From: Microthyrium microscopicum
Taxonomy: Eukaryota
Assembly: GCA_010405405.1 (NCBI GenBank)
Contig: MU004235.1
Location: 1,130,538 to 1,194,537, forward strand
Length of the DNA stretch: 64,000 nucleotides
Reading direction: 5' to 3'
Numbering within the stretch: the stretch's first letter is position 1; each line of letters begins with the position of its first letter. The position numbers and the translations under genes were made by a program. Below, in pieces: positions 22,018-27,210 of this stretch. The notes under the pieces were generated by a model, which saw only the letters and a program-made list of their open reading frames with translations, was not told the origin of the DNA and did not search any database.

Positions 22018-23452
22018 CCTGGCAGTTGAGTGAACAAAAACTTATGCACTCAATACATTTAAGGCAGTTGAGAAGTTCTTACGAAAAGGATAGGGAAAAT
22101 GTACAACCCTGAGTCCCTGACGGGTGAGAGCTGAAGCATGAAGTACTGTAGGGAACGCGGCCTCAGCCTCAGGGGACATTGATCCGATAGAGCTGAGAGC
22201 TATGTCAGGGGAGTAAATTCTTCAGAGTTTCGGTGTCAATTTACATTTCTCTGAATACCTTGTGATGTTCGATTTCCATGATGATGCTAGTAGGCTGAGC
22301 CTGCAAAGATCAAGTATGTTCATTTCCAGTAGAACGCTGGCCATGCCGTAATATGACATCTGGGCTCAGGCGTCGATTCCGGTAGTCCATTTGAAGAGAG
22401 TCGGATGTGAATTGTGGATGCGCATTGGTATCAACTTGGAAACTTACATATCTTAGAGCCTAGGTTATTTCCGCAGCGAAGACACTTGTGTAGCATTGCG
22501 ATGGCATTGGAAGGAAGTGTGGTTACTGGACAGTAAGTTGAAACTATTTTGATACAACCTGAAGATTAGCGATCGCAAGTACTCTGTCTAGAGTTTTGTA
22601 AGGCCAATGAATTACCAAGCGTAGGCCGGTGTAGCTCGCACATCCGTTCCGAAGCGCTACTTATTTCCATTTCTAAGCCTACGCTAACCTGAATCGCGTC
22701 TGATTTCATAAGTGATAGTCAGGTACCAAATCAGCCAATGAGATCCAGTATCAAATGTTGGATTCTAATTTCTAGAATCGAAGGATTGGATGTTAGAATA
22801 TTAATGCGCTTCATTGAATGCATCAAGATAACCCGCTCCAGCCACATGGTTCAAATAGTCACATGAAGACCTATAAGGACCAGACTTGGATACTCATATT
22901 CATGGAGAATGCAGGTAGAGATAGCCTTGAGGTGATCGCTGCAAAGTGAGCTTACATCGACAAGCGCGAGTTGGAGATAGCCTCATTATTGTCGCACAAT
23001 CCTGCAAGGCTGCAATGGAAATTCCTCGGAACTCCCCACCAACAGCCCGATGATGGGTACATAATTGCTAATGGCTGCTATCGCTCAAAAAGCCGTCCTA
23101 CGCCATTTCTTGTACGATAGGATCAATTGGGCTGTTTGAGATGGTGGAGAGCCACCAAAAGTCGTGGCTCTCAAACATGGCGTTAGTTTCAAAGGCCCTT
23201 GCACTCCTTCGGATGGTGATTTTTGCCGTCAAGACGGTCGTGATTATTAAAGCTCCACTTTAGGCTTGAGACTGTTTCCATTGGTATATAATCTCTGCTT
23301 ACTCCCCCAACATCTTCATCCTCAAGTTTGCATTTCCATCATCTGGAATCCGTGTTTTTGTGCTTCGTGACATCAACTCTCGTTGGCTTCATCAAACCCC
23401 TAACCCGTCTCAAGCACCACAGAAAAGCCAAACACCAAGAAACAACAAAGCA

Positions 23453-24876
23453 ATGTCTTCTGCCGAGCCTCAAGTCGCGGCCACCGGCGTACCTACTACT
23501 GCTGCTGCAGAACCTCAAGTCACAGAACCTCAAGCTCTACCCTCAGTTGCGACAAAGCACATTGTCGTCCTAGGAGCCTCCTATGCCGGTCTCCAGGCCA
23601 CTCACCACATTCTCCGACACACAATCTCATCACTCCCGAATAAGGCGTCTTACCACGTAACTCTCGTCGATCCCTCCAGTAAGCACTAACTACACTCTTC
23701 CGAGTTGACTCGAGACCAAACTGACAATCCATAGCAACCTGGTTCAACCGTATCGCCGCCCCACGCGCCATCGTCTCCGAAGCAGCCCTCCCACTAGACA
23801 AAGTCCTATTCCCCATCGCCGAAGCCTTCAAGGCTTACCCCAAAGAACAATTCACTTTCGTCCAAGGAACCGCCAACGCCCTCGACACCACCACCCGTGC
23901 CGTCACCATTAGCAAAGCAGATGGCACCACCGAGTCCATTAGTTACTACGCGCTCGTTATCGCTGTTGGCGCCGCGTCTCCCTCACCACTACTAGGCGTA
24001 CAAGGTTCCCACGAGCACAGCGTGACGGCCATCAAAGCCTTCCGCGAAGCCTACCCCAATGCCAAATCCATCGTCATCGCAGGCGGCGGACCAGCTGGCG
24101 TGGAGACAGCCGGTGAACTCGGCCAAGCACTAAATGGCAGCGCCGGTCTCTTCGCCAAGCGACCAAAGGTCATTAAAACGAAAATCACACTCGTTACTGC
24201 CGACAAGAAACTCTTACCCGTACTACGACCTGCGCTCGCAGCCAAGGCCGAGAAGCTGCTAAATCGTGTTGGCGTGGATGTCGTATACAACACCCGCGTC
24301 GAGTCCACACTCCCCGAATTCGCCGGCCGTATCGACAGCGCAGGTAGTCTAGACAGCGTATTGAGCGCCACAAAATTCACGCTCAGTGATGGAACTGTGT
24401 TGGACGCAGATATCTACATTCCCGCAACTGGTCTCAGCGTCAACACAAAATGGCTTCCTAGAGACCTCCTCGATGACCGTGGTCGTGTAGCAAACGACAA
24501 GCATCTACGCGTAGCCAAGGCGGGTGCACGCGTATATGCAGTCGGTGATGTGGGTGCCCATGGACGTGGTGGTGCATTTGAGCTGATGCAGACATTACCT
24601 GTGGCACTGGTCAATATTGACCGGGACTTGAAGCACGATGCTACGCGGGAGAGTGGAAACGAGACAGCACCCAAGGGCAAGGACAATGAGTTTGATAATA
24701 AGCTACAGGAGAGCCAGTTGGTGCCCATTGGAAGCAAGGGTGTAGGTGCGGTATTTGGCTGGAAATTACCCAGCTTCATGGTCTGGTTGATCAAGGGACG
24801 GGATTATATGGTCAGCCGATCGCCTGGTACGGTCAATGGCGATGCTCAAAAGAAGCCCATCAAGTGGACAGGTTAA
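23453..24876 (+). CDS. AMID/AIF-like FAD-dependent pyridine nucleotide-disulfide oxidoreductase
   Basis: HIVVLGASYAG, SIVIAGGGPAGVETAGEL, VYAVGDV, MVWLIKGRDY. One intron 23679-23734. Confidence 0.9.
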
Positions 24877-25213
24877 GACGGAGTCGCCGAATTGTGCTTT
24901 GTTTGCTTGTTTCTTGGGCGTGATACCAATCTGTTTTTAGTTGTAGTTCTCGGTCCTGGATGGGCGGTTATATAGGTTTAATCAGTAGCTAATTCATACA
25001 CTTCTATACATATTCACGAATGACAGAACTGAGCCTGGTTAGGAAGTGGTCACGAATACCAGCAAATGTGTTTGATTTTGGAGTTGCCACAACCGACCAG
25101 AGAACTCCGTAGCCAGTACATTTTGAGCACACTGGTGTGAACTAGCATAACCCCGTACGGCTTGATACGATAATTTGAATTCCTTAGACAAGAGCAGGTA
25201 GATCGTCGTCATC

Positions 25214-25929
25214 CTATTCAACTTCGGCAGACTTGCTCTCAAAGGTTTCGTTGTCCACCAATTCGGGGATATCATCATCGTCATCACCATCCTTGCCTTC
25301 ACCGGCCTTTTGCATGCTCTGGTAGCTTTCAGCAAGCTTGCGTAGCGATGCAAGTGAGTCTGGGCCGAGTTGGTTGAGGATACCGGGAACGAGTTCGGTC
25401 AGCTCCTTCTCTTCAGCGTTTCCGTAAATGGCGAACAGGTTGCTTGAGATTGCGGAGTGGACTTTGAACAGTTAGCAACGAGAGGTTCGGTTTCCAATGA
25501 GACGGCAAGACAAACCCTTGGGAGCTGAGAAGTGGATCACGTTGCCGTCGGACTTGAACATGTTGACTTCCTCAATGGCCTGGATAGGTTGAACATTGAG
25601 CTTCTTCAAGGATTGTTGCAGCTTCTTCTCATCCGTGCCACTGCTCTTGTGAACCTTCTTGATCTTTCTTCGCACAGTTCCCTTGCCGCTGTTCAGATAT
25701 GTAATTAGTCACTATTCCTTGATGGGACATTTTTGATATGTGGTCGTTTTGGTAGAATGAGGAAACAGGGTGAGGAGAATCTAGCAAAAGAGCTTGCTGA
25801 TCGATGAAAGTATAAACGTACCCTGATAATAAGTCAGCAATAGATCAAGTTGAATGTCTAGTACAGCTTTGAGAGAAACTTACCAATGCGAACCTGCGCT
25901 TGCATGCGCGCCAACTTTTCTGTATCCAT
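25214..25929 (-). CDS. EGD1: Nascent polypeptide-associated complex subunit beta (BTF3)
   Basis: [30 protein letters not shown]...[29 protein letters not shown]...DDIPELV. Requires a 1-nt exon at 25822. Confidence 0.96.
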
Positions 25930-26339
25930 GTTTGCAGCGAGGAGTTGACGGGGGAATTGGGATGACAAGGAAGGCTGAGCAGTGCCAACAATTACAGTCG
26001 GCTCTGATAGAGATGATTGGAGGATGAAGGAGGGGAGGAGAGGTTGAGTGTGGTGTGACAGGCTCCGGCAGTCTTGAAGTTGAAGCAAAAGCTGTGAGAA
26101 ACTCTTGGTGGAGAGGTTCCTGACCGCCCGCCAGCCCACAGTGGCTCTTTCCTCATCCTCAGCAGTCGTTCCGCCTACCAATCAGCGCAATCCATCCGGA
26201 GAATTTGTTTTTCCGCTCCACGATTCTTTACCCCTGCATGGCCCAAGCTCCATTTTTTATATCGTCAAATCATCAGTTGTTCAAGAGCCTCAATGGATAT
26301 TTGTAGAATTACTAAGTTTCCTACTATCATAAATCAATC

Positions 26340-27210
26340 ATGCCACTCGACACTTCCTCCTATTCTCTCGCCCTCTTACGCCTCGACGGCCGCCGTTGGA
26401 ACGAATTGCGCCGCATCCATGCCGTCATATCTTCTCAACCCGCCGCCGATGGCTCCAGCTATCTCGAAATGGGCAACACCAAAGTAATCTGCACCGTAAC
26501 CGGCCCCTCAGAGCAAAAGCGCACCGGCCCACAACAGCCCACCGGGCCCACTGCGTCTGCGCGCATCGACGTAGAAGTTAGTGTCGCCGGCTTCAGCAGC
26601 GTAGACCGCAAAAAGCGCTCGCGAACCGACAAGTAATACAGCCGCCATCCCAAGCAAGGACTACGAAAGTAGCTAACATTATAACAGACGCACCGCCGAA
26701 ATGCAACACATCCTCGTATCCGCCCTTAGCGACATAGTCCACACCCATCTCTACCCACACTCCACCATCCTTATCTCCCTCCACGTCCTCTCTCTCGACG
26801 GCGGTCTGCTCGCCGCACTCATCAACGCATCCACACTCGCGCTTGTCGACGCCGGTATCCCCATGTCCGATTACCTAGTCGCTTGTACGACAGGCAGCAC
26901 CGTAAACAACGCCTCTTCACGCGCTGTGCCTGCGCGCCAAACGATACCAGGCATCCGCAGTATGGCCAACGAGGTGGACGATCCACTGTTAGATCTGAAC
27001 GGGCTGGAGGAGCAAGATTTGCCGTTTGTGACGGTGGCGACGGTAGGGAGCGAGAAGGGTAGGGTGGCGGTGTGTTTTAGTGAGACGAGGATGATGGCGG
27101 AAAGATTGGAGGAGATGTTGGCGGTGGGGGTTGATGGGTGTCAGATGATTCGGAAGGTGTTGGATGCAAGTGTGAAGGCGCATGGACGCAGGATGTTGGA
27201 TGATACTTGA
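26340..27210 (+). CDS. RRP41: Exosome core subunit Rrp41/Ski6 (RNase PH family)
   Basis: LRLDGRRWNELRR, ADGSSYLEMGNTKVICTVTGP, LYPHSTILISLHVLSLDGGLLAALINASTLALVDAGIPM. One intron. Confidence 0.93.

Follow-up and report, generated by a model that had tools for sequence, protein, structure and literature searches.

A probable constitutive single-nucleotide exon in the NAC-beta gene of Pezizomycotina

The NAC-beta gene of the fungus Microthyrium microscopicum very probably includes an exon of one nucleotide. NAC-beta is a subunit of NAC, a chaperone that associates with ribosomes. We analysed a 64-kb stretch of DNA, hereafter the window, to which all positions refer, and conclude with a probability of about 0.9 that the G at 25822 is a constitutive one-nucleotide spliceosomal exon of this gene, located between two canonical U2-type introns. 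Exons of this kind are already on record; the one in NAC-beta is a new and far more widely conserved case.

Results

Anatomy of the NAC-beta gene

The gene lies on the minus strand, and its parts are given in Table 1. Its product was identified as a NAC beta subunit: 781 proteins matched it at an E value of 0.001 or better, and all 120 matches listed carry the PF01849 domain. Read on the minus strand, the coding sequence starts with the ATG at 25929, and exon 1 ends in CGC ATT G. The GTAAGT donor of intron 1 begins at 25883, and its branch motif, GCTGAC (25838-25833), places the branch A 11 nt before the 3' end of the intron. This motif is followed by TTATTATCAG up to 25823, then by the lone G at 25822 and directly afterwards by the GTACGT donor of intron 2 (25821-25816). 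Intron 2 has its own branch motif, ACTAAT (25709-25704), with the branch A 16 nt before the 3' end, and its CAG ends at 25689, so that exon 3 opens at 25688 with C GGC AAG GGA. The gap between the two large exons (25689-25883) is 195 nt long. Within it, the base at 25822 has a canonical acceptor, AG, on one side and a canonical donor, GT, on the other, and both introns are complete and of workable length. The preliminary description of this DNA had proposed exactly this arrangement of exon ends, branch points, lone G and donors; all of its coordinates and motifs were correct, and a recount of the sequence agreed with its lengths of 61 and 133 nt for the introns around the single G.

Table 1. 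Parts of the NAC-beta gene and their positions in the window
Feature	Position	Strand	Remarks
NAC-beta (EGD1/BTF3-type) gene, stretch under the spliced RNA contig	25150..26061	-	contig extends beyond 25150
Exon 1, coding part	25884..25929	-	46 nt; 15 residues and the first G of a Gly codon
Intron 1	25823..25883	-	61 nt, GTAAGT to CAG; not in the RNA contig, apart from the extra G aligned at 25883
One-nucleotide exon (probable)	25822..25822	-	G, middle base of the Gly codon GGC; AG/G/GT
Intron 2	25689..25821	-	133 nt, GTACGT to CAG; absent from the RNA contig
Exon 3	25516..25688	-	173 nt; third base of the Gly codon, GKGTVRRK...SAPK and first base of the next codon; core of the NAC domain
Intron 3	25462..25515	-	54 nt, GTTTGT to AAG; the RNA contig skips 54 nt (CT..AC on the + strand)
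Last coding exon	25214..25461	-	through the stop codon TAG

With both introns removed, the lone G would sit between the final G of exon 1 and the first C of exon 3, giving the Gly codon GGC and restoring the conserved ..VRIGGKGT.. N-terminus. The computed frames behaved as expected from the earlier claim that direct joining shifts the frame and that the G restores I-G-G-K: inclusion of the lone G gave an open frame of 155 codons, whereas joining the large exons without it caused a frameshift and a stop after 42 codons. On the other strand, the gene is bordered by long open frames at 23725-24876 (+; 383 aa) and 26316-26636 (+; 106 aa).

A spliced RNA contig carries one extra G at the junction

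Contigs of public sequencing runs were compared with positions 25150-26100, and three runs, X1, X2 and X3, gave matches. Runs X2 and X3 covered only 25204-25398, in the last exon, and hold no information on the junction. Run X1 provided a single contig of 761 nt at a depth of 3951, aligned with zero mismatches in three pieces (25150-25461, 25516-25688 and 25883-26061); the RNA support consists of contigs from one run of one study, in which minor isoforms, intermediates and the order of splicing are invisible. The labelling of X1 as RNA is only a guess, yet its contig is devoid of both intron regions, which indicates that it is cDNA-derived.

The first joint in this contig removes the 54-nt intron 3. 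The second joins 25883 to 25688 with no unaligned letters between them, skipping 194 of the 195 nt. Because the joint skips 194 and not 195 nt, the mRNA consists of exon 1, one extra G and CGGCAAG..., restoring ..VRIGGKGT... The contig therefore contains the mRNA sequence that had been predicted from the DNA, namely ..ATTG followed by G and by CGGCAAG... The placement of the extra G by the aligner is ambiguous by 1 nt, either at 25883 (leaving a TA..AG intron) or at 25689 (leaving a GT..CA intron). The mRNA sequence alone fits any of three Gs, the retained G being indistinguishable from the adjacent splice-site Gs. We infer from the canonical splice signals and from the conservation of the site that the extra G of the mRNA would be the G at 25822 and not a neighbouring splice-site G.

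The AG-G-GT site is conserved within diverged introns

An alignment of exon 3 with 19 homologues served to search metagenome contigs. This gave 384 relatives, of which the best 80 were kept as loci. Together with the window, these form a comparison set of 81 sequences. The same anatomy was found in the window and in 78 of the 80 loci (the best 80 of 384 relatives). A strict exon-1 search, with exon 1 ending in ..(V or A)R[I] G/GT and the next exon opening as YAG/N GGN AAR GGN, was passed by 73 of the 81 sequences (72 loci and the window). Six more loci showed the same boundaries by eye, with either a variant exon-1 peptide or an additional intron within exon 1. The other two, L020 and L061, come from other species and are fully spliced contigs that read VRIGGKGT.

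In every intron-bearing locus, the middle G of the Gly codon is missing from the flanking exons. An internal AG/G/GT(A/G)NG was present in all 79 intron-bearing sequences (78 loci and the window), with both introns at least 40 nt long, and neither intron was lost in any of them. The preliminary description had suggested looking for AG-N-GT in other Pezizomycotina; the site is there, and the exon base N was G in the window and in each of the 78 loci. To describe the surroundings, we used 54 representatives whose intron regions are no more than 80% identical. Among them, the Gly codon varied at its third base (C in 22, A in 20, T in 11 and G in 1), as expected of a third codon position. Around the lone G, positions -2 to +2 and +5 were 100% conserved and +3 was A in 96%; from 32 nt upstream to 15 nt downstream of the site, conservation did not exceed 69% at any other position. 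AG-N-GT was thus kept in 54 of 54 representatives while the surrounding intron diverged. The lengths of the introns ranged from 54 to 487 nt for intron 1 (median 93.5) and from 68 to 252 nt for intron 2 (median 135), and a CTRAY branch motif was found upstream of both acceptors in nearly all loci.

A strict site was then defined: CTRAY 8-35 nt upstream of YAG, followed by a single base and a donor matching GTRNGN or GTANGN, neither intron being shorter than 45 nt. This site was present in 58 of 61 distinct orthologous intron regions, as against 28 of 12200 dinucleotide shuffles (0.23%) and 2 of 1249 flank windows of 240 nt. On both strands of the 64-kb window it occurred at two places, one of which is the site at 25822. 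The other match, at 22683 (minus strand), has C as its single base and a weak donor, GTAGGC, and is probably due to chance.

These data bear on the strongest of the competing explanations, in which a single 194-nt intron has one non-canonical end, GT..CA or TA..AG, and the internal AG-G-GT goes unused. Such an intron would yield an identical mRNA sequence, and its two versions are exactly the two placements of the joint by the aligner. Nevertheless, it would require an odd splice site in a very highly expressed gene that offers perfect canonical sites, and the region is long, at 195 nt against 54 nt for intron 3. It would also leave unexplained the internal AG/G/GTRNG and its upstream branch motif in 54 of 54 diverged representatives. 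An invariant AG/G/GT within an unconserved intron is what a one-base exon predicts, and we consider the single non-canonical intron improbable.

Several features of the metagenome loci are recorded here in their own right. At +6 of the donor that opens intron 2, C occurs in 29 of the 54 representatives (25 of them with GTAAGC); in the same genes, C is found at this position in 5 of 54 intron-1 donors and in 14 of 54 intron-3 donors. In the window, the donor after the one-base exon is GTACGT. Shared ancestry or a constraint on this donor could account for the excess of C. Three loci (L003, L040 and L051) have an intron 1 of 475-487 nt, against the median of 93.5, and keep the one-base exon and an intron 2 of 82 nt. 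Locus L005 has an additional intron inside exon 1 (after ..GAGAAGTTGGCTC), with the one-base exon still present. We also considered a tandem duplication of one intron as the origin of the pair. Local similarity between intron 1 and intron 2, calculated with the splice signals stripped, had a median z of -0.25, and the best values, z 4.3 and 3.7, arose on very small scores, giving no support to a duplication. After such long divergence no signal of duplication would be expected anyway.

Most public gene models are disturbed at the junction

Protein searches with dothideomycete, pezizomycete and leotiomycete queries returned 258 distinct homologues among the matches listed (the best 120 for each). 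Among these matches, the RIGGKGT motif was read correctly by 16 of 140 species-named models, the remaining 124 being wrong at the junction. This agrees with the earlier expectation that gene predictors would mis-model the exon. We sorted 117 of the named models by what they show at the junction. RIGGKGT was correct in 13, whereas 31 had G-X-G, 4 had one G only, 46 had an inserted or translated intron and 17 had a different or truncated N-terminus; the last 6 fell outside the KGT.RRK pattern and, by eye, none of them reads RIGGKGT. A further 23 named models came from the leotiomycete-query search, of which 3 were correct and 20 were not. The unnamed proteins, mostly from short contigs, read GG in 38 of 93 cases and G-X-G in none.

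The G-X-G class is explained by donors of the form GTNNGT, in which use of the second GT adds 4 nt, so that the frame is restored and one codon is gained. In these models X is I, T, D, N, E, H, A or K, and each X follows from the GTNNGT donor together with the base that opens the following exon. Those seen most often, I, T, D/E and N/K, match the four commonest donors of intron 1, GTAT, GTAC, GTGA and GTAA. The NCBI model from Microthyrium microscopicum itself, P0003, which bears the name of a NAC-domain protein, belongs here: it was reproduced letter for letter by taking exon 1 as 25929-25880, and the protein predicted with the one-base exon differs from it only in lacking an extra, spurious Asn at residue 17.

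This raises the question of whether the main mRNA might really use the GT 4 nt downstream, with exon 1 at 25929-25880 and a single 191-nt intron, giving ..VRIGNGKGT.. as in P0003. The exact reproduction of P0003 and the analogous G-X-G in 31 of the 117 named models would fit such a route. Against it, the joint in the RNA contig spans 194 nt where this route would require 191. In 7 of the 54 representatives, moreover, there is no GT at +5/+6, so that the route is unavailable to them although their frame problem is the same. Transcript-like sequences never show G-X-G, as seen in the unnamed proteins, where 38 of 93 read GG. As a description of the main mRNA we regard this route as very improbable; it could operate as a minor isoform. 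By comparison, a one-base assembly error at an exon end, in which a G was missed in the GG run at the donor of one ordinary intron, has in its favour that the absent base is a G beside other Gs, a typical place for homopolymer errors, and was named in the preliminary description as a possible refutation, but with the same middle G of the Gly codon missing from all 78 intron-bearing loci, in many assemblies and species, and a compensating internal AG/G/GT in every one of them, it is refuted for practical purposes.

A correct model does not mean that the exon is absent: the Ophiobolus model reads GG, though near-identical loci hold the one-base exon. Two models of Pezizomycotina merit a separate remark. 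P0109 and P0110, from Pleosporales, are 355 and 367 aa long and have NAC-beta fused to an upstream PF20238 region, which is probably a merger of gene models caused by the unmodelled one-base-exon junction. In addition, P0250, which nr assigns to Quercus suber, shares 77% identity with the NAC-beta of Sclerotinia and has a disturbed N-terminus of the fungal type; it is probably a fungal contamination in a plant assembly.

Taxonomic breadth

According to a taxonomy look-up, disturbed models occur in six classes (Dothideomycetes, Eurotiomycetes, Lecanoromycetes, Leotiomycetes, Orbiliomycetes and Pezizomycetes), Orbiliomycetes and Pezizomycetes being included on disturbed protein models only. The models of Aspergillus, Botrytis and Sclerotinia are disturbed at the same place. 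For the metagenome loci, class assignment by blastx is noisy, as overlapping pieces were summed, and near-identical cases only were used. The one-base exon was present in the DNA of L028 (98.6% protein identity to Rhinocladiella), L062 (98.6% to Oidiodendron), L008, L009 and L045 (about 99% to Ophiobolus) and L005 (95.8% to Neohortaea). In the same noisy blastx comparison, Lecanoromycetes proteins gave the best scores for other loci that contain the one-base exon. No sordariomycete was among the matches listed (the best 120 for each of the dothideomycete, pezizomycete and leotiomycete queries), and coverage is that of the Pezizomycotina, short of the Sordariomycetes. The presence of two early-branching classes, represented by protein models only, suggests that the one-base exon may date to an early ancestor of Pezizomycotina.

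Discussion

How a one-nucleotide exon may be spliced

Since short fungal introns are recognised across the intron, exon definition would not be required for an exon of one base. The intron 1 acceptor and the intron 2 donor overlap in a stretch of 3 nt, and their simultaneous occupancy would hardly be possible. Owing to this overlap, the two introns are probably removed one after the other, and either order of removal would leave a normal intron for the second step. The preliminary description had also argued that skipping the G gives a frameshifted mRNA, and the computed G-skipped form bears this out, its premature stop lying 90 nt upstream of the last exon junction. It is plausible that such an mRNA, if made, would be an NMD target.

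One may further imagine that the one-base exon, far from being a historical accident, is kept by selection as a dosage valve combining ordered splicing, regulated skipping and NMD. The overlap of the splice sites would impose one set order in which the introns are removed; some of the transcripts, in a regulated proportion, would skip the G, shift frame and enter NMD, and NAC-beta would in this way be tuned to the levels of NAC-alpha or of ribosomes. Under this hypothesis, the absence of intron loss and the excess of C at +6 would be read as signs of constraint. We consider such a valve unlikely.

Relation to known systems

In the long introns of animals, recursive splicing proceeds by stepwise removal at ratchet points made of juxtaposed AG/GT. 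These points resemble the NAC-beta site in that a 5' splice site comes right after a 3' splice site. Ratchet points, however, keep no base and amount to a zero-length exon, whereas NAC-beta would keep one, which is needed for the frame.

The splicing at the NAC-beta site had initially been likened to that of fungal stwintrons. As far as the text of that work available to us goes, a stwintron is defined by an internal intron that splits the donor, branch site or acceptor of an external one, the latter becoming functional once the internal intron has been excised (Fekete, Flipphi et al.; PMC5587772). Stwintrons of Pezizomycotina share with NAC-beta the immediate contact of two U2 introns, consecutive removal and the same fungal group, and differ in having no exonic base between the introns (PMC5587772), where in NAC-beta both introns are intact and one base is kept. 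NAC-beta is therefore not a case of a stwintron: the signals of both NAC-beta introns are uninterrupted by one another, and a retained base separates them.

Closest to the present case are the CYP621A P450 genes of Fusarium, for which a one-nucleotide exon has been described (Nelson and Syed 2026; PMC12940212). From the portion of that paper available to us, the likeness extends to a nuclear fungal gene, an AGGGT core, a G that supplies the second position of a Gly codon within a conserved motif, exon boundaries of phase 1 and phase 2 that need this base to be joined, and omission by automatic annotation, and that case too is supported by an alignment of orthologues, together with SRA reads. 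As described there, the Fusarium exon occurs in about 20 species of one genus, in genes that are rarely expressed and of unknown function. NAC-beta, unlike CYP621A, is a highly expressed housekeeping gene, with the exon seen in the DNA of 54 diverged lineages and disturbed models in six classes. The authors call theirs the first fungal case, and NAC-beta is not mentioned in the available portion (PMC12940212).

In plants, a one-nucleotide exon is known from APC11 of Arabidopsis (Guo and Liu 2015; PMC4674806). Judging from the part of the article at hand, that exon is likewise constitutive and lies between two U2-type introns, and the public cDNA or model was mis-annotated as well. The difference, beyond the kingdom, is that the APC11 exon was demonstrated experimentally, by GFP fusion constructs in Arabidopsis and rice.

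A long-read annotation of Coprinopsis cinerea lists 13 exons of 1 nt in 13 genes (PMC12230235, as far as its text was available). As with NAC-beta, these are one-base exons of a fungus, and omission of microexons breaks gene models. In contrast, that species is a basidiomycete, and the report is a genome-wide count whose genes are unnamed in the accessible text; NAC or BTF3 terms are absent from three of its supplementary tables (PMC12230235). Among the papers listed by our literature searches, subscription journals excepted, we found none describing a one-base exon in NAC-beta.

Significance

Most public models of a universal and abundant chaperone subunit are wrong in Pezizomycotina (124 of the 140 named ones among the matches listed). 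The errors comprise a spurious residue, a missing Gly, a translated intron or a false N-terminus, and they affect the ribosome-proximal motif ..RIGGKGT.RRK. They are relevant to databases and to anyone who aligns or expresses NAC-beta proteins. The exon also provides a clean benchmark for gene predictors and spliced aligners, as the aligner used here put the base at a splice-site G. Genetic work is feasible in several genera of this group. The only other fungal gene that we found described with a one-base exon has it, according to the available portion of that account, in a single genus. In NAC-beta, the probable one-base exon has been stably kept in lineages whose introns have become unrecognisably different in all other respects.
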